Source: Leptospira biflexa (lineage in GTDB: Bacteria; Spirochaetota; UBA4802; UB4802). Taken from it: a stretch of DNA of 64,000 nucleotides. The stretch is from contig DYLU01000002.1 of the NCBI GenBank assembly GCA_020721905.1, positions 11,314-75,313 of the forward strand. Direction: 5' to 3'. Positions 13,191 to 49,610 of this stretch are shown in pieces; positions within the stretch are counted from its first letter, which is position 1; each line of letters starts with the position of its first letter. The translations under genes were made by a program, and so were the position numbers. The notes under the pieces were generated by a model, which saw only the letters and a list, made by a program, of their open reading frames with translations, had not been told where the DNA came from and did no database searches.

Positions 13191-13838
13191 TTATTCTTTA
13201 CACTTATACCCAACATTTCGTATGGTTTCTATTATATTATTAAACTCATCCCCCAATTTAATTCTAAGCCTTCTTATATGAACGTCAACCGTACGAGTAC
13301 CCCCAATATACTCAACCCCCCATATTTGTGAAAGTAACTCCTGACGTGTAAAAACTATACCTTTATTTTCCATTAAAAATTTAAGTAATTCAAATTCTTT
13401 ATATGTTAGCAATATATTGTCATTGTTTACTGTTACCGAATACTTTTCAGGCTCTATGGTAATATTGCCAACTTTGATAACCGAATCCTTTAATTCAATT
13501 TCAGCACCTATCAGACGATCAATACGCGCTTTTAATTCACCTTTTCTGAAAGGGAACACAATAAAATCATCAAAAAACCAGTCCCTGTTTACTGATTCTA
13601 AATATCCAGCCCGTACAATAAGTATGACTGGCAATCGCTGAAAACGCTTTCGAAGCTTTGAAAGATAAAACTGTGTATCGCTGATATCAATTTGCTCAGT
13701 ATCAAATAATGCTATATCAAATCCTTCATCCTTTAGAGTATTAATAGTACCATGAACACTTACATCTAAAATCTGAAGCATTCTTACTTCAAGAACCAAT
13801 TCCTTATTTTGTGTAATGAGTGCCGTTTTAATTTTCAT
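13191..13838 (-). CDS. OmpR/PhoB-type winged-helix regulator with degenerate (pseudo-)receiver domain
   Basis: The C-terminus LTYKEFELLKFLMENKGIVFTRQELLSQIWG...TRTVDVHIRRLRIKL is typical of the family. In the receiver, the DD pocket is replaced by QN (ALITQNKE), the conserved Thr is missing (ILIVRAG) and Lys is replaced by Phe (DDFIVFPF). Confidence 0.8.
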   Translation of the reverse strand: MKIKTALITQNKELVLEVRMLQILDVSVHGTINTLKDEGFDIALFDTEQIDISDTQFYLSKLRKRFQRLPVILIVRAGYLESVNRDWFFDDFIVFPFRKGELKARIDRLIGAEIELKDSVIKVGNITIEPEKYSVTVNNDNILLTYKEFELLKFLMENKGIVFTRQELLSQIWGVEYIGGTRTVDVHIRRLRIKLGDEFNNIIETIRNVGYKCKE

Positions 13839-15001
13839 TTTTTATTAACTAATGTTAAAAAAATATTCATATACCGTTCTGCTACATTTTCGGCATAAAA
13901 GGTTGTAATCTTTTTTTTATTATTTACAGAACAGTATTGATAGAGCTTTTTATCATTATAAAATTTCATAATACTTTCAGCACACTTTTCCACATCACCA
14001 ACATTAATGAGCATTGCATTTTCACCATGGATAAGAAAATCAACCTGCCCCCCATGGTTGGTAGCAACAATAGGCAATCCGCAATACATGGCTTCCATAA
14101 ACACAATGCCAAATCCTTCATGCATTGATGTAAGTACAAACAAATCAGATTGCGATAGATAGGCAAATTTTTTCTCGTCGGCAACAAATCCCATAAACTG
14201 CACTCTATCGTGTAATGACAATTCTTTCACAAGTGATTCTAAGTATTCCCTTTCAGGACCATCTCCCATAATGAGAAGTTTGATGGCAGGATTATCAAAA
14301 AGAGCTATCGCCCTTATAAGAATATCAATTGATTTACGCTTTATCAATCTTCCAATAGTTATACAGATAAAATCTTTTTCATGCAGCCCCAATTTTTTCC
14401 GTGATGTTTTTGGTATTACTGGCGGATGGAATGCTAACGGTATAATCTGAATTTCTTTTTTTGGTGCATAGTATTCTATTGCGTTATTGCGGGTATTTGA
14501 TGATTGTGCCACAATTACATCAGCTCTGTTAAGGAGAAAACGAACAACAGATTTAAAAAATCGACTTCGGTGAGGTGATATTTTTTTACTTGGATCATAA
14601 ATATCACCACCATGCAATGATAAAACATTTGGAATGCCAAATAACTTTGAAATTACATACCCTAGAGGGCCTGATGGAACAACAAAATGCGTATTGATAA
14701 CATCAAACTTATATTTTAAGGCAAGCGATAGTGCCCGTATAAGCCCTGCAGGCAGGTAGCTAAGCATTGAAATAAATGTTGCTGCATCCCTTGATTTTCT
14801 GAAAAAAATCTTTACCCTGTGCACATGAATCCCATTAATATTTTCATAGGAGGGTAACCCTTTAAATGACGAAGTGATGACATGCACATTTGCTGACTTC
14901 ACCCACTCCAATGCCAGGTCATATGTTGCAACACCCCCACCCCCCCCTAATGGAGGAAATTCATAATTTATAATTAATATATTAATCTTTTTTTCTTTCA
15001 T
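13835..15001 (-). CDS. GT4-family glycosyltransferase
   Basis: N-terminal FPPLGGGGG and the C-terminal EGFGIVFMEAMYCGLPIVATNHGG (E-x7-E region). The stop overlaps the regulator start as ATGA. Confidence 0.88.
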   Translation of the reverse strand: MKEKKINILIINYEFPPLGGGGGVATYDLALEWVKSANVHVITSSFKGLPSYENINGIHVHRVKIFFRKSRDAATFISMLSYLPAGLIRALSLALKYKFDVINTHFVVPSGPLGYVISKLFGIPNVLSLHGGDIYDPSKKISPHRSRFFKSVVRFLLNRADVIVAQSSNTRNNAIEYYAPKKEIQIIPLAFHPPVIPKTSRKKLGLHEKDFICITIGRLIKRKSIDILIRAIALFDNPAIKLLIMGDGPEREYLESLVKELSLHDRVQFMGFVADEKKFAYLSQSDLFVLTSMHEGFGIVFMEAMYCGLPIVATNHGGQVDFLIHGENAMLINVGDVEKCAESIMKFYNDKKLYQYCSVNNKKKITTFYAENVAERYMNIFLTLVNKK

Positions 15002-15196
15002 ACAAAATACTCCATCTTTAACAAAAAAGGTTAAGTTTTTCTCACACTAAAACATGCCTTTTATATTTCAAATACTATTTAATCGCGCATAGCTAAAACA
15101 ATCTTCCCCCTGAACAAACTATGCATGCTATAAAAATACATTCTGGAATAAATATCCGATATAAATTAAAAAATAATGTTTTGTTAAAAATAATAT

Positions 15197-15226
15197 TTGC
15201 CAAAATACATTAGAAGAAGGTACTAT
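15197..15226 (+). promoter_or_regulatory. candidate sigma70-type promoter for the lipoprotein/barrel pair
   Basis: TTGCCA, 18-nt spacer, TACTAT, about 85 nt upstream of ATG 15313. Confidence 0.25.
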
Positions 15227-15312
15227 ACTATAAACGCTAATGGGGAAAAATTCTATTTTATTACTAAAGGAAAAGGTTTTATCTTAATACTATCAAAAAA
15301 AGGTGGTGAATT

Positions 15313-15933
15313 ATGAAATTCTTTCAATTTTTAGCTATTATTACCACACTATCTTCATTATTTGCCTGTTCAACTATCGATGTAGCTTCTACCAATAAAC
15401 AGGCAATACAAAAAAGAATGAAGCGGGTTGCAGTATTTCCCTTTGACATAAAAGGTGCCGGCTGGGGAGATGAATTTTCAGATGCTATCTCACATCAATT
15501 TTTTAAAAGCGGAAAAGTTACTACCATTGAACGTGAAGCCATACAAAAAATTCTGCAGGAACAGCAGCTTTCTGCCTCTGGTTTAATTGACGATAAACAG
15601 GCTGTAAAAATTGGTAAATTTTTAGGTGCAGATGTTATCATCATTGGCCGTGGCTCTGCTTTACAGGCATACAGAAACAATAAGTTTGAACCCAACTGTA
15701 TTGATACTTTTACATTAAAAGCCATTAATACTGAAAATGGCGAAATTTTGCTAACCGTTCGCAAAGAACCAGGAAGGGCATGGGACTGGCGTTACAGAGC
15801 AAAGTTTTGCTGTGGATTAACATTAATCTGGAATCTCAATGATATTTTAATAGAGAGTTCACAATATGATGACATTGCAAAACAGATAGTTAAGCAAATC
15901 CTTGGTATTTTACAAGAAGAAAATAAAAGATGA
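15313..15933 (+). CDS. CsgG/LpoB-like lipoprotein (copy A)
   Basis: Lipobox LSSLFAC. The core VAVFPFD...IEREAIQKILQEQQLSASGLIDDKQAVKIGKFLGADVIIIG follows the CsgG-family pattern. It is a clear paralog of 46076-46699. AGGTGG SD. Confidence 0.6.
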   Translation: MKFFQFLAIITTLSSLFACSTIDVASTNKQAIQKRMKRVAVFPFDIKGAGWGDEFSDAISHQFFKSGKVTTIEREAIQKILQEQQLSASGLIDDKQAVKIGKFLGADVIIIGRGSALQAYRNNKFEPNCIDTFTLKAINTENGEILLTVRKEPGRAWDWRYRAKFCCGLTLIWNLNDILIESSQYDDIAKQIVKQILGILQEENKR

Positions 15934-16709
15934 TATTTAAATGTACAACATATACCAGCCTTTTAATCCTGGTTAGTATTGTTGCTTTTTTTTCTTCTGC
16001 CTATTCATCCGAATTTGATGAGCTGGACAAGCCTCCTGAAGGTATACACAAAGATCAGATAATACTTACAGGCTCAGTTTCTATTGGCATTCCTTACGGC
16101 GATCTTATTTCAGCCGAAGAAAAATTTACTAAAACTTCAACCTACACCTTTGAGAATGAAATAACTAAACTTATTTATCTATCACATTTAGCTTTTGGAT
16201 TAACAATGTCAGGAGAATATCTTCCTATCGATTATATTGGTATTCGCTCAAAACTAAGGCGCAGTGTTATAGTTCAGAATACAAATTTTGGCGCTGACTA
16301 TCAATCCTGGAAAAAAACACTGTACAGCGATTATTCTGTTTATTTTGGCCCATCTTTTCATGTTACTAATAGAAAGCCATGGGACATTAGTTTATCACCC
16401 ATGCTTGGCTATGTATTTGCTACTTATAAGCCAACTCCTATAGCCCGCGTACTTATTGATGGGTATATACCACCGCCAACACAACAGTTTTCAAGTATGA
16501 CCTATGGTGTTGATGTTATGCTCAGCATATTTTTCAGCGGGGGGCTTGTTTTCCAGATTGGTGGGGAATGGATACGTAACAATATACTATTTTCATCAAT
16601 ACCAGATGCCGTTAATCCACAAACAAACCAGATTTTTTATACAAAGAAAGATGCCACCATTGATTCCGTTCTTTTCTGTGTTTCAGCAGGTTACGCCTTC
16701 TATAATTAA
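15930..16709 (+). CDS. putative outer-membrane beta-barrel protein
   Basis: Signal peptide (...VAFFSSAYS), alternating-hydrophobicity strands rich in Tyr/Gly, and an aromatic C-terminus AGYAFYN. ATGA overlap with the lipoprotein gene. Confidence 0.5.
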   Translation: MIFKCTTYTSLLILVSIVAFFSSAYSSEFDELDKPPEGIHKDQIILTGSVSIGIPYGDLISAEEKFTKTSTYTFENEITKLIYLSHLAFGLTMSGEYLPIDYIGIRSKLRRSVIVQNTNFGADYQSWKKTLYSDYSVYFGPSFHVTNRKPWDISLSPMLGYVFATYKPTPIARVLIDGYIPPPTQQFSSMTYGVDVMLSIFFSGGLVFQIGGEWIRNNILFSSIPDAVNPQTNQIFYTKKDATIDSVLFCVSAGYAFYN

Positions 16710-43328: not shown

Positions 43329-44189
43329 ATGATTACACCTCATACAAAAGGCATTCTGTATGTACTTCTTTCCGCAGTTACTTTTTCTTTATCAACGGTG
43401 TTTGCAAAATACATTACCAGTACATCCCCCATTCATGGTATTGAGGTATCTTTTGTAAGATTCCTCATTGGGTTCATTATCTCTTCAGGTTATATTGTAA
43501 TCCACAAAATGAGCATTTGCCCTAATAATGTACCTCTGGTGCTTACCCGTGCTGTATCAAACACCGTGGCTGTAATACTTTTTTTTGTCGGAGTTCAATA
43601 TACAACAGTTACCAATGCTAATATGCTCAATATGACATATCCTGTTTTTGTATTTGTGCTTGCTCCTTTATTTAATAAGGAACGCATTATAAAAATTAAT
43701 ATTTTGTATCTCATGATAACTCTGGCCGGCACCTATCTGGTGATACTGCCTCATTACAGTACCATCAATATTGGTGATGTATATTCATTTCTTTCGGCAA
43801 TCATTTCTGCTATTGCTGTGGTAGCTCTGCGTGAATCACGAAAATATGATAGCACATCAATAATTTTATTTCATCTTATGACTATTGGGCTTGTTATAAA
43901 TGGCATTGCCATGATCCCGGTATTTACAATTCCTGATAGTGTCACATTTGTTTATATGCTTTTTTCAGGTTTAAGTGCATATTTAGGACAGGCTTTTTTT
44001 ACTGCTGGATTTAAATTCATTGATGCAACAAGTGGTTCAATACTATCTTCAAGCAGGATATTTATTGCAGCAAGCATGGGAATATATTTTTTCAATGACT
44101 CATTTGCCACTAACATCATTATTGGCGGGTTATTAATCACGGTGGCTCTGATAGGTGTAAGTCTGGAGGAACACAAAGATATACATTAA
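43329..44189 (+). CDS. EamA/DMT-family transporter
   Basis: About 10 TM segments in two EamA-like halves, 286 aa. Confidence 0.75.
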   Translation: MITPHTKGILYVLLSAVTFSLSTVFAKYITSTSPIHGIEVSFVRFLIGFIISSGYIVIHKMSICPNNVPLVLTRAVSNTVAVILFFVGVQYTTVTNANMLNMTYPVFVFVLAPLFNKERIIKINILYLMITLAGTYLVILPHYSTINIGDVYSFLSAIISAIAVVALRESRKYDSTSIILFHLMTIGLVINGIAMIPVFTIPDSVTFVYMLFSGLSAYLGQAFFTAGFKFIDATSGSILSSSRIFIAASMGIYFFNDSFATNIIIGGLLITVALIGVSLEEHKDIH

Positions 44190-45136
44190 TCTTCTATAAA
44201 TCCCCGCATCACCATATCCACACTACCTGCCAGCGCTTCCAGGTCATAGCCACCCTCAAGGAACGCTATCATCCTGCCACCACTGAACTCATTTGCAACC
44301 TGTTTTAACAGGACTGTAAATTTATAGTATGATTCTGAAGCAAGCCCTATGTACGATAAGGGATCGGCATTGTGGGCATCAAAACCAGCCGAAATGAGGA
44401 TAATATCAGGTTCAAATTTTGTTAATGCAGGAACTATCTGATTTTTAAATACATCCAGATACTCAGGCTCACCACTACCTGCCGGCATTGGGAAATTCAG
44501 TGTGTATCCTTCACCCTCACCTTTACCCCGTTCACTGCGGGCACCGGTTCCAGGATAATGAGGATACTGATGTGTGCTGATATACAGTACAGTTTTATCA
44601 CGTTCAAAGGTATGCTGCGTTCCATTACCATGATGTACATCCCAATCAACTATCGCAACTTTCTTCAACCCATGCTCCACCTGCAAATATTTGGCTGCAA
44701 TTGCAATATTATTGAATATACAAAAACCTGCAGCATAATCATACTCAGCATGATGACCGGGCGGTCGCACTGCACAAAAGCCGCGTATTGCTTCACCTGA
44801 CATTATTGTATCACACATGTTGAGGCTGCCACCCACCGCAAATAGCGCCACCTCATATGAACGCTTACACACTGCCGTATCCATTGAATCTAAATAATGT
44901 ATGCCGGATTCTATCTCCTGCTTTACGCGTTCAATGTATTCCGGAGAATGCACAAGTTCTATATACCGTTTTGCTCCAATTTTAGGTTCAACTTTAATCA
45001 GGGATTTATAATATGTCTGCTGACGTAATCGCTGATCTATAGCTGCCAGCCGTTCAGGCCTTTCTGGATGACCCCATCCTGTATCATGATCCATATATAC
45101 AGGATCAAAAAGGTATGCAGTAGGTACCATATACAC
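44186..45136 (-). CDS. histone deacetylase-family (class II/AcuC-like) deacetylase
   Basis: RPPGHHA, DWDVHHGNGTQ and the FLEGGY region. The start is GTG 45136 or ATG 45130. Confidence 0.88.
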   Translation of the reverse strand: MYMVPTAYLFDPVYMDHDTGWGHPERPERLAAIDQRLRQQTYYKSLIKVEPKIGAKRYIELVHSPEYIERVKQEIESGIHYLDSMDTAVCKRSYEVALFAVGGSLNMCDTIMSGEAIRGFCAVRPPGHHAEYDYAAGFCIFNNIAIAAKYLQVEHGLKKVAIVDWDVHHGNGTQHTFERDKTVLYISTHQYPHYPGTGARSERGKGEGEGYTLNFPMPAGSGEPEYLDVFKNQIVPALTKFEPDIILISAGFDAHNADPLSYIGLASESYYKFTVLLKQVANEFSGGRMIAFLEGGYDLEALAGSVDMVMRGFIED

Positions 45137-45217: not shown

Positions 45218-45853
45218 TTACAGAGGATACCTAACCCCTAACCGTATTACCAGCCCTGACATATCCAGCTCTAAATCGCCGCTTTTAAGAGGTAAACTGC
45301 GATATCCAGCTTCAGCATAAAAATCAACCTTTGAATCAGCAGCTGGTTTTAACGAAGCACCAAAAAACAATTCCCACGAAAGTCCGCTAAAAAGTTTGGT
45401 AATGGAATCTGCAGTATATGACTTGCCTGTATTTGAGTCAGTAAAATCGGGCTGTGAATAATGTAATATCATGAATGAATAGCCCAGGCCAATGGTTATA
45501 AAAGGTGTTACATACAGTTTATCCTTTAAGTTTGGCAAGCGCACCTGTGCGTTGAACATCATGGGGACAATATAAGCATTGGTATCAGCCTTAACATCAA
45601 CAAATACAGTACCTTCCTGCTTAACACCTATTTTCCTGTCCCATCGTACCCATACAAATCCCGACTCAATCCCTGTCACAAAATAAGGATCAAGGAGCCA
45701 ACTATAGCGCAACGAAAGATCAAATCCATATTTGGATGGATCACTTGCGTATGATGTTCCTAACGCGCCATTTAATTCAGTGTTTGCACTAAAACCATTT
45801 ACAGTAGTTCCTATTACTATAAGTGTAAAAAATATAATAATTATTCTTTTCAT
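45218..45853 (-). CDS. outer-membrane beta-barrel protein (OmpW/porin-like small barrel)
   Basis: Signal peptide MKRIIIIFFTLIVIGTTVNGFSA, alternating strands, and terminal strand LVIRLGVRYPL. Confidence 0.65.
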   Translation of the reverse strand: MKRIIIIFFTLIVIGTTVNGFSANTELNGALGTSYASDPSKYGFDLSLRYSWLLDPYFVTGIESGFVWVRWDRKIGVKQEGTVFVDVKADTNAYIVPMMFNAQVRLPNLKDKLYVTPFITIGLGYSFMILHYSQPDFTDSNTGKSYTADSITKLFSGLSWELFFGASLKPAADSKVDFYAEAGYRSLPLKSGDLELDMSGLVIRLGVRYPL

Positions 45854-46075
45854 AAAAAACCTCTCTTGCCAATGTTTTTATATATTGTATATATTGTATG
45901 GCCCTGTGTCAACATCAATATGTGTTGCTCCACTTCAAACTTGAACTTGCAATTTTTATTTATTATCAATACATAAAAATTGTTGATTATTTACTTGATT
46001 TAAATAAAGCTTGTTACATCATCTATTCAATAACCAAAAATGTCGTAATATATTATTTATTCAAGGAATATCATT

Positions 46076-46699
46076 ATGAAAAATTTAACACTGCTTTCAA
46101 TATTTCTTTTTATGCTTTCATGTACATCCGTAGACAAATCAGTGTACATAAAAGATAAACAGGCATTGCAAAAGCCAATACGCATTGCAGTTTTAACCTT
46201 TGTTGACGCACCCAAATACCCTGGATCGGGAATAAGTATTGCTGATGCATTGACCAATGAACTGGTTCAGATATCAAATTGGGATCTGGTGGAACGTTCA
46301 CAGATAGAGAAGATTTTAAAAGAAAAATCATTTGATATGACTGGATTAACCGATTCTCAGATTACCGATATTGGCAAATTAGCAAAAACTGACTATATCA
46401 TAGTGGGTAGTGTTTCAGATTATTATTATGACAGGCAATTTTATATTGTACCAAAAACAAAGATAGCATTCAATGCCCGCATTATCAATACACAAACAGG
46501 CAGCATTGTAGGCACTTTACGCTATAACCGTGAAACCAATAAGAATGCATGGTGCGGATGCTGTCTTTTAGGATGGTATTATCTGCCAGTGCTGTTGTTG
46601 ACTGATCAGAATATTAATACGGATGTAAGCAAAGCTGCTCGTGATGTGGTAAGAACTATCAATAAGGATGTGAGTGGCAAAAGGAGCTGTTGCATATAA
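46076..46699 (+). CDS. CsgG/LpoB-like lipoprotein (copy B)
   Basis: Lipobox FMLSC. IAVLTFVD...VERSQIEKILKEKSFDMTGLTDSQITDIGKLAKTDYIIVG aligns by eye with copy A along its whole length. Contains the WCGCCLLGWYY insert and ends ...RSCCI. Confidence 0.6.
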   Translation: MKNLTLLSIFLFMLSCTSVDKSVYIKDKQALQKPIRIAVLTFVDAPKYPGSGISIADALTNELVQISNWDLVERSQIEKILKEKSFDMTGLTDSQITDIGKLAKTDYIIVGSVSDYYYDRQFYIVPKTKIAFNARIINTQTGSIVGTLRYNRETNKNAWCGCCLLGWYYLPVLLLTDQNINTDVSKAARDVVRTINKDVSGKRSCCI

Positions 46700-46710
46700 A
46701 TCAAATCCTT

Positions 46711-46881
46711 TTACTGATAGCTATCTATCATAGTTCCCAGGCCTTCAACACTGACATGTGAAATTACATTTGCTTCTACCAGTTTCTCGCTTAATCCGGT
46801 ACGTACTGCTGCCAGTCCCTTAAGCAAATTGTTGAGCTGTTCTATACTCTGCTCTATTGCTGTTAGGTGTTGTGCCATCAT
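46711..46881 (-). CDS. small hypothetical protein (56 aa), possibly YjfB-like
   Basis: ATG 46881 behind AAGGAGGG; MMAQHLTAIEQSIEQLNNLLKGL...VEGLGTMIDSYQ. The track start at 46902 is a TTG extension. The family assignment is weak. Confidence 0.45.
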   Translation of the reverse strand: MMAQHLTAIEQSIEQLNNLLKGLAAVRTGLSEKLVEANVISHVSVEGLGTMIDSYQ

Positions 46882-47254
46882 GACACCCTCCTTTGTGTCC
46901 AACAGTAATTTCTATTTGCAATATCGACTAAACCTGCTATATTCTTAATATAATATTTTTGAAGAAATTTTTTGTATTTTTTAAATTATCTTCCCATCCT
47001 ATTCATTACCATAATGCCATAGTAAAACACAATACATTGACCATTTGTTGTCAATTGCTGAAAAGTAAACACAAACTGGCAAAATTTTTGCAACTTAACA
47101 CTCAATCCTTTCCCTTATATAGGGAAAGTCAAAAGGATCTATCCTTTTATTAAGGAAATGTTTGATGCGTTATCTAAAAACAGTTGCTATATTCCATAAT
47201 AAGGGGATAAGGGTTACATGAATACATTCCATTTTTTGAAGGAGACCATGCATT

Positions 47255-49075
47255 ATGAAAATTAGCAAATTCCTTTTTGCAACGTATATCTTCATTATAT
47301 TCATGATTTTTCCCACATTTTATGGATTCGCTGATACTACCATTGCAATCCATCTTGATCAGGAAATATTAAATGTAAAACCAAATACAAAAGCCTGTGC
47401 TATTGTACACATAGATTTGCCCACAAAAGGCTATATCTATGCCAACCCCAAAGGTGAGGGAACCGGAAAAGCAACAACCGCTAATGCAAAAGCAACCCAA
47501 CATATAGTACCAGGAAAAACGCGCTATCTTCCCGGAACCTTTTATATTTCACCTCTTGATAGCAAACCGGTGTATATTTATAAAAAGCACACCTCGCTCT
47601 GTATTCCATTCACAATAAATACAGCACAAGAAGGCTCATATTCTTTATCATTCATAATTGAGGCTTTATATTGCAATGATGTATCCTGCACCCCCGTACT
47701 GCAAACTGTTACCCAGATAATTAACGTTGATAAATCAGCACCTGATTTTGATACATCATTATGCACCACATATAAAGAGCCTGACGATATAATTCACACA
47801 GTAAATAAAGAAGACACGTCCGGTCATTTTAATATAATAGATGCAGGTGGTAGCTCAACACTGAGTTTGTTTCATGCAATCATTTTTGGAATTCTTGCAG
47901 GCTTTTTACTCAACTTTATGCCCTGTGTACTTCCTGTAATAAGCCTTAAAATTTTAAGTTTTATATCATATGGCAACAACAAACCAGGGAAGGTAAGGAT
48001 AATGGGATTGCTGTTTACCGCAGGGATATTAACATCTTTCTTGGCACTGGCTTCGCTTGCAGCATTTGCCGGTTATAACTGGGGTGAGCTTTTTCAACAT
48101 AAAATTTTTATTATTATCATGGCAGCCATAATTTTTGCACTGGCTTTATCGTTTTTTGGTGTGTATACATTCAATATTCCACAGCTCTCACTATTGCAAA
48201 GTGCCAATGTCTATTTAGATTCATATTTCAAAGGAATAGTTGCCACACTTCTTGCTACCCCCTGCAGTGGTCCTTTTTTGGGGGCTACACTGGCATGGTC
48301 ATTAACGCAGCATCCTGTAATAATTTTTATAATTTTTATTAACATTGGTCTTGGCATGTCACTTCCATACCTGCTTTTATCATTTTATCCGTCACTTATC
48401 AGATTCATCCCCAAATCCGGAGACTGGATGATAACATTTGAGCAGTTTATGGGATTTTTAATGGTTGCCACCACCATCTACCTTATATCATTACTTGATG
48501 CAGGTACATTGACAACAACTATCTGGTTTTTGTTACTTGTATCCATTGGATTATGGCAATGGGGGCGGTTTGGGAATATAACAAAACCATCAATACAGCG
48601 AATAATTTCATTTGTTGTGCTTGTGCTACTTGTTGTTTCTGCTAGCATGATATTTTCCAGCAAAAAAACATCAAAAGCTGAAATAACCTACAAGCCTTTT
48701 GACTGGGAGGAGATAGTTCATAACAATACATCACAGGTTTCAATGGTCATTTTTACTGCTGAGTGGTGCCCCAACTGCAAATTCGTTGAGGCTACAGCAT
48801 TATCATCTTCCAGTATTATTGAATTCATATATAAAAATAATATCTCTGTCTACAAAGCCGATATCACCACAAAGAATCCGCCAGCAGAGAGCATATTACT
48901 ACAACTTGGTTCACGATCGATACCGTTTGTGGCTATCTTCCCTTCAGGAGGTAATTTTTCACAGCCTGTTATACTGCGTGATATTTATACAGCAAAAGAT
49001 TTATTGAAGGCTTTGCAAAAAGCCCTGGAATTGAGTAAACAATCAGAGATCCCTCAACTGATGACTATCCCTTAA
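47255..49075 (+). CDS. dsbD: thiol:disulfide interchange protein DsbD-like (N-terminal domain + CcdA-type membrane core + thioredoxin-like domain)
   Basis: Membrane-core Cys motifs NFMPCVLPV and TPCSGPFLG, and a C-terminal thioredoxin motif AEWCPNC. GAAGGAG SD. Confidence 0.85.
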   Translation: MKISKFLFATYIFIIFMIFPTFYGFADTTIAIHLDQEILNVKPNTKACAIVHIDLPTKGYIYANPKGEGTGKATTANAKATQHIVPGKTRYLPGTFYISPLDSKPVYIYKKHTSLCIPFTINTAQEGSYSLSFIIEALYCNDVSCTPVLQTVTQIINVDKSAPDFDTSLCTTYKEPDDIIHTVNKEDTSGHFNIIDAGGSSTLSLFHAIIFGILAGFLLNFMPCVLPVISLKILSFISYGNNKPGKVRIMGLLFTAGILTSFLALASLAAFAGYNWGELFQHKIFIIIMAAIIFALALSFFGVYTFNIPQLSLLQSANVYLDSYFKGIVATLLATPCSGPFLGATLAWSLTQHPVIIFIIFINIGLGMSLPYLLLSFYPSLIRFIPKSGDWMITFEQFMGFLMVATTIYLISLLDAGTLTTTIWFLLLVSIGLWQWGRFGNITKPSIQRIISFVVLVLLVVSASMIFSSKKTSKAEITYKPFDWEEIVHNNTSQVSMVIFTAEWCPNCKFVEATALSSSSIIEFIYKNNISVYKADITTKNPPAESILLQLGSRSIPFVAIFPSGGNFSQPVILRDIYTAKDLLKALQKALELSKQSEIPQLMTIP

Positions 49076-49085
49076 AGGTATACCA

Positions 49086-49610
49086 ATGCAATCACTCAAA
49101 TATTACCATGAACTAATACAAAAAGTTGATGCATTTACAGACTCTGTCGTTTCAAAGTACGGCTACCAATTGCATTGCAGAGAGGGCTGCAGCAGTTGTT
49201 GTATACTGGAAAGTGTAATGCCCGTTGAACTTGTATCAATAGCACAATGGTTTGCAAAACAACCTGAATCAATACGATCTATAATTAAACAGGGAGATAC
49301 ACATTTCTGTATGTTTTTGCATAACAATAGATGCATTATCTATCCCATAAGACCTGTAATTTGCAGAACCCATGGCTACCCGGTCTTCATCCATAACAGT
49401 GTTGATATCTGCCCATTAAATAATAATATAAGCTTTGAACCAGAGTATATTCTTAATTTAGAGAACTGTAATACAATGCTTGCAGCTATTAATATTTTAT
49501 TCATTAAGGAAGTACAGATTCCTGCATTACAGACAGAACGCATTAATCTACGGGCGTTTTTTCAAAGCTCTGAAACCGATATCCTTTCTATAGTGCATAC
49601 CCTCAAATGA
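49086..49610 (+). CDS. YkgJ-family cysteine-cluster protein (second copy)
   Basis: CREGCSSCC, then CMFLHNNRCIIYPIRPVICRTHG. The 3' end overlaps the purD 3' end by 63 nt. Confidence 0.65.
   Translation: MQSLKYYHELIQKVDAFTDSVVSKYGYQLHCREGCSSCCILESVMPVELVSIAQWFAKQPESIRSIIKQGDTHFCMFLHNNRCIIYPIRPVICRTHGYPVFIHNSVDICPLNNNISFEPEYILNLENCNTMLAAINILFIKEVQIPALQTERINLRAFFQSSETDILSIVHTLK

Follow-up and report, generated by a model that had tools for sequence, protein, structure and literature searches.

How does a small exported lipoprotein come to carry adjacent cysteines within a long run of apolar residues, and do the genes beside it tell us what this run is for? The question is raised by a B-type lipoprotein gene found in a window of 64,000 nucleotides, the whole stretch of DNA analyzed here, which also contains an A-type paralog. 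The B-type gene encodes an orphan outer-membrane-type lipoprotein of uncultured spirochaetes with the PelC/CsgG/LpoB core fold. The features used in our analysis are listed in Table 1.

Table 1. Positions of the two lipoprotein genes, their inserts and their neighbors in the window.
Feature	Positions	Strand	Remarks
Exported 211-aa protein, divergent to the B gene, probably a small outer-membrane β-barrel	45218..45853	-	ORF; sub-threshold match to OMP_b-brl
Divergent intergenic region, 222 bp	45854..46075	.	sigma-70-like sites on both strands
B-type lipoprotein gene	46076..46699	+	207 aa; PelC/CsgG/LpoB-fold domain, hydrophobic Cys-rich loop, Cys-containing C-terminal tail
B signal peptide and lipobox (MKNLTLLSIFLFMLS-C16)	46076..46123	+	direct sequence reading
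B insert, residues 155-179 (NKNAWCGCCLLGWYYLPVLLLTDQN)	46538..46612	+	between the last β-strand (144-154) and helix αC (180-200)
Hydrophobic core of the B insert, residues 158-175, AWCGCCLLGWYYLPVLLL	46547-46600	+	
G161-C162-C163 motif	46556..46564	+	most conserved part of the B insert
B C-terminal tail KRSCCI	46679..46696	+	stop codon directly after; ortholog consensus [KR][KR]GC[CL]
A-type paralog gene	15313..15933	+	206 aa; Pfam CsgG 3.8e-10, LpoB 2.9e-7
A insert RAWDWRYRAKFCCGLTLIWNLNDILIESS, residues 155-183	15775-15861 (CC at 15808-15813)	+	longer and less hydrophobic than that of B
Exported 259-aa ORF	15930..16709	+	4 bp overlap with the A gene; conserved partner of A-type genes
DsbD-like thiol-disulfide reductant transporter, 606 aa	47255..49075	+	DsbD_TM 3e-23, thioredoxin 7e-6, NCBIfam DsbD 5.8e-40

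The peptides quoted in the first-pass annotation of this DNA and both lipoprotein genes are encoded where it had placed them (the strings of the A copy at 15394-15831). Its by-eye alignment of the two lipoproteins as collinear was also right, as A and B are true paralogs with 30% identity over 186 residues (BLASTP, E 9e-19). Each has a signal peptide ending in a lipobox cysteine (C16 in B and C19 in A), which is kept in 27/28 and in at least 90% of homologs, respectively. In B, the lipobox Cys and the TSVDK after it recur in 27 of the 28 non-redundant homologs, and hhalign pairs C16 with the lipobox cysteine of E. coli CsgG. The AlphaFold model of B is confident in its core and in helix αC (pLDDT 84-86). 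The AF2 model of A has an overall pLDDT of 82.4, and αC is modelled confidently in both paralogs (84-92). B combines a PelC-type α/β fold with an N-terminal lipid anchor. It is a stand-alone lipoprotein that shares the α/β-core superfamily with PelC, CsgG, LpoB, FlgT, TraT, PqiC, and LptE, and as modelled it is structurally nearest to PelC.

The Trp/Cys-Cys hydrophobic segment described earlier for both paralogs is present in each, and in both AlphaFold models it sits after the last β-strand and before the C-terminal helix. Residues 158-176 of B (19 residues) score -10.4 kcal/mol on the Wimley-White octanol scale, a more hydrophobic value than the -7.1 of its signal peptide. The helical moment of the B insert is 0.04 and its beta moment 0.43, indicating neither an amphipathic nor an alternating polar/apolar pattern. 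AlphaFold models it with low confidence, with a helix at 166-175 and pLDDT below 50 at residues 163-169, and does not pack it with confidence against the domain. The B segment is too hydrophobic to lie exposed in a soluble fold, and a membrane-engaging role for the insert is reasonable. The A insert is modelled with moderate confidence (AF2, pLDDT 76-85) as a helix (159-167), a loop and a second helix (175-182), and it has conserved polar residues, K164, D177, and D186. A β-hairpin suggested by the by-eye alternation W-D-W-R-Y-R-A-K-F in the A insert was rejected, since this alternation is not kept across the family and AlphaFold places a helix there.

How well is the motif conserved? Among 26 B-family members, non-redundant at 90% identity, C162 is kept in 25 and C163 in 22 (replaced by F, I, S or G), while position 161 is Gly in 22 and Ser in 4. 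The check by alignment that had been proposed for the CC pair thus came out in its favor within the B family. The kept positions are G161, C162, C163, G/S166, W167, Y168, Y/F169, and P171; positions 164, 165, 170, and 172-175 take L, I, V, F or M interchangeably. W159 is found in 13/26, with L, I or F in the others, and C160 is missing from most members. One subclade has a short insert with only about 15 apolar residues. Orthologs retain the Cys-Cys pair down to about 37-40% identity, its codons vary synonymously (TGC/TGT) across loci, and cysteine is nearly absent elsewhere in these proteins; in B itself, all cysteines other than that of the lipobox lie in the insert and tail. Taken together, these three facts indicate that the pair is not there by chance.

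The same cannot be said of two wider claims made for the cysteines. Copy B does end in KRSCCI, as had been noted, but this is not a conserved end: in orthologs the terminal pair is usually one Cys, and a terminal Cys is present in 14/26 members, which belong to a single subclade, and absent from 12/26, including the whole short-insert subclade. All members with it except one (P0020) have the long YYxP insert; by insert type, the C-terminal Cys occurs in 15/20 long and 0/8 short. Nor is CC a shared requirement of both paralogs. In the A family C166 is kept in 57/75 and C167 in 45/75, with L/I/V/F in the remainder, and distant A-type relatives have L, I, V or F at both positions.

The genes around B were compared across genomes. 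The DsbD-like gene reported about 0.5 kb downstream is real, with DsbD_TM and thioredoxin domains, and starts 556 bases past the end of the lipoprotein ORF. The "barrel" at 45218 exists as an ORF, although its barrel identity is weak: the match to OMP_b-brl (E 6.4e-5, 23.6 bits) is under the cut-off of 28.7, and no sequence relative was found in the PDB; a PDB search with the profile of the A family gave none by sequence either. The intergenic region holds matches to the sigma-70 consensus on the minus strand (TTGACA-17-TACAAT, 45912-45884) and on the plus strand (TTGCCA-18-TATATT, 45866-45895), as consensus matches only. In this genome a CxxCxxCC gene as well as the DsbD-like gene lies downstream of B.

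The first-pass annotation had read the barrel/lipoprotein pair as a module, with the DsbD-like gene close by. However, three of the genes near B (barrel, DsbD, and CxxCxxCC) adjoin it only where genomes are nearly identical (at least 86% identity) and are absent beside it in seven independent, more distant contexts (called genes listed for L001, L004, L012, and L013; tblastn with the window proteins only for L019, L021, and L022). The apparent barrel/lipoprotein/DsbD module is local synteny only, and the 45218-45853 protein and the DsbD-like protein are neighbors of the B lipoprotein, not demonstrated partners. B genes have no conserved small downstream partner, the ORFs in L001, L004, L012, L013, and the window being mutually unrelated. 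Neither csgE/csgF, amyloid subunits nor hfaA/D were found in the window or in the four gene lists, and no pel genes or PelB-type TPR-porin, metal-resistance genes, or linked acyltransferase were found beside any B-type gene in the contexts examined. PelG was seen only near one A-type ortholog (L011). The A-type gene has a different kind of neighbor: in L009 and L010 the gene immediately after the A ortholog encodes a homolog of the 15930-16709 protein (46% identity), and similarity of this protein to the B-side "barrel" was not detectable.

What, then, may the B insert do? Its lipobox, fold, insert site, hydrophobicity, conservation, and lack of conserved gene partners are established; beyond them, the choice of membrane, ring formation, insertion of the loop into lipid and the state of its thiols are inferred. 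We give about an even chance to the reading that B is a probably ring-forming lipoprotein whose hydrophobic loop is a re-entrant membrane wedge or anchor. The protein would be exported by Sec and lipidated at Cys16, so placing its domain on the periplasmic face of a membrane, presumably the outer one, although outer and inner cannot be told apart by reading a spirochaete sequence. By analogy with PelC, CsgG, TraT, and PqiC, it may form a homo-oligomeric ring. The re-entrant wedge would be the loop of 25 residues that joins the last strand to αC. Both of its ends would have to be periplasmic, because αC is homologous to, and modelled like, its counterpart in the A paralog, where no membrane-like segment precedes it. 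The wedge would put AWCGCCLLGWYYLPVLLL into lipid near the N-terminal acyl chains and so serve as a second anchor or packing element that forms no pore. Its cysteines would be reduced and act as small, apolar residues, or alternatively link protomers. If the segment is helical, A158-C162-G166 would form a small-xxx-small stripe, which would account for the tighter constraint on C162 than on C163.

Four observations sit less easily with the wedge. The insert is poorly predicted just at residues 163-169. A shallow helical wedge accommodates the Trp and Tyr residues in mid-segment (167-169) less well than would a hairpin that is interfacial or spans the membrane fully. The near-invariance of C162 exceeds what is expected of a merely small or apolar position and leaves room for thiol chemistry. 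Finally, K164, D177, and D186 suggest a structured protein-protein element over lipid contact, at least in A.

A thiol-based site could be of two kinds: the CGCC cluster and the C-terminal Cys may bind a thiophilic metal, or they may form a redox- or sulfenylation-sensitive switch reduced via the DsbD pathway. The constraint on C162 and, largely, on C163, the restriction of non-lipobox cysteines to insert and tail, the C-terminal Cys that tracks the long insert type, and the DsbD-like and CxxCxxCC genes downstream in this genome agree with it. Another lead, and a lead only, comes from mercury proteins, as MerT and MerF have vicinal Cys pairs in apolar segments and MerA has a C-terminal CC. The likeness to MerT/MerF is at the level of the motif: Cys-Cys is followed by Leu/Gly/Pro-rich apolar sequence, and a second Cys or pair stands near the C-terminus. 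However, these proteins have another fold and topology, B has no match to Mer or metal families at E up to 1, mer genes are absent here, and the terminal pair of B is usually single or missing. The reading also has to face a DsbD gene that is unlinked in the seven distant contexts, a C-terminal Cys lacking in 12/26 members and C160 in most, the replacements at C163 and in the A-type relatives, and the lack of metal-resistance genes in every context examined. We consider it unlikely.

Also unlikely, in our view, is a protein-protein interface, in which the greasy loop is buried between ring protomers or against an unlinked partner and not in lipid; such a partner could be a barrel enclosed by the ring, in the way that PelC holds PelB. 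The best structural match, PelC, works with a barrel, an OMP-like gene adjoins B in this genome, and the A-type paralog has both a conserved adjacent exported partner and a moderately confident insert with invariant polar residues. The B-type gene, in contrast, has no conserved neighbor in the seven distant contexts. The free L/I/V/F exchange suits lipid exposure better than a specific interface, and 18 apolar residues in a row would be unusual for a soluble one.

Comparison with characterized members of the superfamily helps to place B. PelC is a dodecameric lipoprotein ring, with an electronegative funnel and a conserved Asp loop, in the Pel exopolysaccharide exporter PelBC; TraT is a decameric lipoprotein of conjugative surface exclusion, LpoB activates PBP1B, and CsgG is the secretion channel for curli. 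LpoB differs from it in three ways: the NCBIfam LpoB model gives only E 0.056 and 13.4 bits against a cut-off of 110.55, strand 1 of B starts at residue 35, about 18 residues past C16, leaving no LpoB-type long disordered linker, and LpoB has no hydrophobic loop. To our knowledge TraT carries no Cys motif. TraT has three amphipathic helices (α1, α3, α4) and an extracellular domain, compared with the single apolar insert of B; its anchor is a non-pore α-helical barrel, the helices of which AlphaFold 3 leaves unstructured (PMC11733297). In PelC, Trp-149 dips into the membrane alongside the acyl chains, and assembly of the PelBC complex depends on it (PMC12141448). B has candidates for such a membrane-immersed Trp in W159 (13/26) and in the insert. 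However, its sequence match to PelC is no better than E 0.07, and PelC, with its one membrane-dipping Trp, has neither the 18-residue apolar Cys-rich loop nor the Cys tail. Rings are formed by CsgG, PelC, and PqiC-like proteins (PMC13631591).

The relation to CsgG deserves separate discussion. B passes the threshold of Pfam CsgG (PF03783; 45.3 bits, cut-off 20.8), over profile positions 10-101 of 210 only, and bears the database name "CsgG/HfaB family". Alignment by hhalign to E. coli CsgG (probability 84.7%, E 6.6e-6) begins at the lipobox Cys and extends as far as the last strand, stopping 10 residues short of the B insert and 9 short of the CsgG segment YEVQAGVFRFIDYQRLLEGEVGY. We take the second transmembrane hairpin of CsgG (TM2) to lie between the last strand and αC, which is the site of the B insert; the TM1 and TM2 boundaries used are likewise our assumption, combined with the hhalign gaps. 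No counterpart of the TM1 segment SGGVGARYFGIGADTQYQLD was found in B by hhalign, B having a turn of 3-5 residues at 121-125, and the segment PYPASNFSTAVPQS, presumably the constriction loop, is aligned to PGSGIS plus gaps.

Could B nevertheless be a CsgG-like channel, with one transmembrane β-hairpin (155-179) per protomer and 8-12 protomers closing a 16-24-stranded outer-membrane barrel? The insert stands at the presumed TM2 site, its 25 residues compare with 23 for the TM2 segment, aromatic residues would mark the hairpin base (W159) and putative tip (W167, Y168, Y169), and Pfam places B in the CsgG family. However, an insert of TM2 type should be an amphipathic β-hairpin, and that of B, similar in length, is uniformly apolar and predicted, at low confidence, to be helical. 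All lumen-facing residues would then be apolar, AlphaFold gives helix and not strands in both paralogs, and the short-insert subclade offers only some 15 apolar residues. The TM1 segment and the putative constriction loop are missing, and neither csgE/F and an amyloid context nor other substrate genes were found nearby in any context examined. We regard a channel as very unlikely. Of the membrane-inserting hairpin proposed by the first-pass annotation, a role in membrane engagement is reasonable, given the hydrophobicity and the presumed TM2 site; the CsgG-like β-hairpin is not supported, in view of the missing segments, the lack of polar/apolar alternation and the helical models. The database label "CsgG/HfaB family" is to be corrected accordingly, since the B protein is without the channel-forming parts.

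Two further explanations have very little in their favor. S-acylation of the internal or C-terminal cysteines as extra lipid anchors would suit cysteines that stand in apolar sequence next to the membrane and follow a basic patch ([KR][KR]GC), both of which resemble eukaryotic palmitoylation sites, yet we are not aware of any enzyme by which bacteria S-acylate exported proteins internally, the contexts examined contain no linked acyltransferase, and the segment is hydrophobic enough without lipid, so that we find it extremely improbable. Hardly more credible is a stop-transfer helix, by which residues 158-175 would cross the inner membrane once and leave αC and the KRSCCI tail cytoplasmic: the octanol value is within the transmembrane-helix range and a basic cluster lies close to the C-terminus, but αC is confidently modelled and has its homolog in the A family, where no membrane-like segment stands at the domain-helix junction, Gly, Pro, Trp, and Tyr run throughout the segment, and the residues directly after it (TDQN) are acidic, not basic. 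Two other candidates were rejected: a C-terminal sorting signal of PEP-CTERM or MYXO-CTERM type, because the apolar segment does not stand at the C-terminus but precedes a folded helix of 30 residues, and an Fe-S or haem site, because the signal peptide lacks a twin-arginine motif and the protein a CxxCH motif.

A bolder picture is one that we consider quite unlikely. The Gly-Cys-Cys loops of a B ring, one per protomer, might together form a hitherto undescribed, entirely apolar palisade in the membrane, as a hairpin or helical collar that encloses either a plug of lipid or an unlinked barrel. The ring would be stapled by CC disulfides between neighboring protomers or would hold a thiophilic metal; the C-terminal Cys would serve as third ligand or latch. 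If true, the PelC/CsgG/TraT superfamily would gain a new way of entering the membrane and of stabilising the assembly covalently. At least three membrane attachments of this core fold are known: CsgG uses β-hairpins, TraT a helical barrel, and PelC one tryptophan. A short, fully apolar Gly-Cys-Cys loop would, if true, add a fourth and widen this repertoire, and the B lipoprotein would be a small, readily testable example of an exported bacterial protein that conserves cysteines within a segment facing lipid.

All peptides that the first-pass annotation had quoted from lipoprotein B and its paralog A were found encoded where it had placed them (see table), and the paralogy it proposed is borne out by the comparison of the two proteins (E 9e-19, 30% identity). 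The signal peptide of B ends at the lipobox cysteine C16, and its ATG is preceded, 11 nt upstream, by an AGGA motif. Pfam CsgG (PF03783) matches both paralogs, but the alignment is confined to the N-terminal half of the profile, and A has an additional match to LpoB. The AlphaFold model of B has a confident core (mean pLDDT 76.9), that of A reaches pLDDT 82.4 (75-sequence alignment), and both return an identical list of structural neighbours, with PelC as the best match. A and B belong to a known superfamily of lipoproteins with a common alpha/beta core, in which several proteins assemble into rings at the outer membrane (PMC13631591).

Coordinates of the lipoprotein genes, their neighbours and related regions (window positions unless a locus from another genome is named)
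Feature	Position	Strand	Remark
A-type gene pair region, window	13835-16709		
A lipoprotein ORF	15313-15933	+	206 aa
A-copy peptide strings	15394-15831		
ORF sharing 4-bp overlap with A	15930-16709	+	259 aa
Histone-deacetylase-family gene	44186-45136	-	
Divergent neighbour ("barrel") ORF	45218-45853	-	211 aa
B lipoprotein ORF	46076-46699	+	207 aa
AWCGCCLLGWYYLPVLLL (B insert core)	46547-46600	+	
KRSCCI (C-terminal end of B)	46679-46696	+	stop codon next
63-aa ORF convergent with B	46711-46902	-	
DsbD-like gene	47255-49075		
DsbD-like/CxxCxxCC gene pair	47255-49610		
A-type gene pair region, locus L009	2542-5445		
A-type gene pair region, locus L010	2539-5476		
A-type region, locus L011	4001-8639		
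327-aa protein region, locus L012	8790-10353		

An exhaustive profile search found this domain in 28,563 clusters, including numerous long proteins with 2-5 tandem copies (P0088, P0093, P0100, P0110 and others; one of 1198 aa has 5 matched stretches). Homologs of B itself are scarce, with 36 clusters among 5.8 billion proteins; 185,579 species genomes yielded nine loci, eight of them in Spirochaetota MAGs. The ninth, in a Verrucomicrobiota MAG, is a weak match (32% identity across residues 22-113).

The gene context of B was compared by tblastn of the window barrel, DsbD, CxxCxxCC, HDAC and EamA proteins against 23 loci. These neighbours stand beside the B gene only where identity of the B protein reaches 86% or more (L007/8, L015-18), and there the region is syntenic in full. 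None of them was found in the seven more distant, independent contexts (L001, L004/L020, L012, L013, L019, L021, L022). The genes directly downstream of B in L001, L004, L012, L013 and the window have no relationship to one another; B is therefore a stand-alone gene. The barrel/lipoprotein pairing named module B thus reflects local synteny, and a link to the DsbD-like gene, genuine in itself, is unsupported, since DsbD is missing from the same seven contexts. The barrel label rests on a sub-threshold OMP_b-brl match; no relative of this ORF was found in the PDB by sequence, and no relationship was detectable between the putative barrels of the two modules.

Other genes here have their own patterns of conservation. 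The 63-aa ORF protein is 86-92% identical in L007 and L015-18, as well conserved as the flanking genes in these close relatives, and has neither a family match nor a counterpart in distant loci. The histone-deacetylase-family gene, adjoining the barrel ORF, shows 95-99% identity in close relatives against 69-94% for its neighbours. A gene with the CxxCxxCC zinc- or iron-chelating domain (PF03692) directly follows the DsbD-like gene, and the two are kept together in close relatives (69-92% identity). In L012 a second, longer protein (327 aa) with a faint CsgG match is encoded some 4 kb away from the ortholog of B, adjoining an ECF-sigma-like gene.

Unlike B, the A gene retains its downstream partner, the overlapping 259-aa ORF, which is 46% identical in the distant genomes of L009 and L010, making a conserved gene pair. 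Given that PelC is the top structural match, this pair may be a Pel-like ring-plus-barrel exporter. Upstream of it lie genes for a GT4 glycosyltransferase, an OmpR-type regulator, a DbpA-domain protein and a methyltransferase. L011 lacks the partner but has a PelG gene some 3 kb downstream.

How well are the paired cysteines conserved? Among 26 informative B-family sequences, non-redundant at 90% identity, C162 is present in 25 and C163 in 22 (replaced by F, I, S or G), as the first-pass annotation would predict for orthologs. Position 161 is G in 22 and S in 4; G/S166, W167, Y168, Y/F169 and P171 are mostly conserved, while the other apolar positions interchange L, I, V, F and M freely. The Cys codons vary synonymously (TGC/TGT) between loci, a high-GC genome included. 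C160 occurs in few lineages and cysteines elsewhere are rare. A C-terminal Cys (consensus [KR][KR]GC[CL]) is found in 14 of the 26, of which 13 have the longer "YYxP" insert (the exception is P0020, with YYAL); the short-insert subclade lacks it throughout. The A family has C166 in 57/75 and C167 in 45/75, with L, I, V or F as replacements. Distant A-type relatives from the exhaustive search keep the insert pattern W..K[YF]..G.G.[IF]W..D but have lost the CC pair. The counts, codon variation and A-family replacements together indicate that the CC pair in the B family is genuine and under selection, and that the insert as such does not need it. A metal or redox thiol site in B would accord with the strong conservation of C162 and the co-occurring C-terminal Cys, but C163, C160 and C205 vary and linked redox or metal genes are absent, which makes it improbable.

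In both models the insert (residues 155-179 in B, 155-183 in A) connects the last beta-strand to the C-terminal helix aC. The B-family profile matched E. coli CsgG between the lipobox Cys and the last strand (probability 84.7%, E 6.6e-6), leaving CsgG SGGVGARYFGIGADTQYQLD and PYPASNFSTAVPQS without counterpart in B. We take the former to be TM1 and the latter to be the constriction loop. The alignment ended 10 residues short of the B insert and 9 short of CsgG YEVQAGVFRFIDYQRLLEGEVGY, presumably the TM2 reported by Goyal et al. 2014; on that placement the B loop (25 aa), similar in length, would occupy the TM2 site. Its chemistry differs from that of TM2. Residues 158-176 are strongly apolar (Wimley-White octanol free energy -10.4 kcal/mol, against -7.1 for the protein's own, less hydrophobic signal peptide), with helical and beta amphipathic moments essentially nil. 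The A insert is longer, with a mean hydropathy of about zero.

Confidence in the AlphaFold model is low for the B insert (pLDDT <50 at 163-169), which has a helix placed at 166-175, and moderate for the A insert (pLDDT 76-85), built as helix 159-167, loop and helix 175-182. Neither model contains the CsgG-like transmembrane beta-hairpin suggested earlier. Overall, the first-pass observation is confirmed and its interpretation partly supported. Helix aC is homologous and confidently modelled in both proteins, and both loop ends are therefore predicted to share the domain's side, a placement that excludes single-pass transmembrane topology.

We favour a re-entrant membrane wedge or anchor loop, a reading with an even chance of being correct. 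Its cysteines would be small apolar packing residues or, possibly, links between protomers. A helical conformation in the first half of the loop would align A158, C162 and G/S166 as a small-xxx-small stripe and would explain the tighter constraint on C162 than on C163. Burial of the loop in a protein-protein interface is unlikely. With the segments taken as TM1 and constriction loop missing, an insert lacking amphipathicity and inserts predicted helical, a CsgG-like single-hairpin barrel is quite doubtful. Despite its database name (CsgG/HfaB family), the protein is not read here as a CsgG channel. S-acylation of the cysteines and a stop-transfer helix are both highly improbable.

The wedge or anchor reading has precedents in this fold. 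Trp-149 of PelC inserts in the membrane beside acyl chains, and W149A abolishes PelBC complex formation (PMC12141448); the TraT anchor is a non-pore alpha-helical barrel whose alpha3 and alpha4 AlphaFold 3 modelled as unstructured (PMC11733297); and each CsgG protomer contributes four strands to its barrel (PMC13631591). A membrane-dipping element at this domain face is thus expected for the superfamily. B is an orphan lipoprotein of PelC-like type, and its unusual apolar Gly-Cys-Cys loop would be a new version of that element. If the loops do form a membrane-inserted collar, covalently stapled or metal-binding, its interest would rise.
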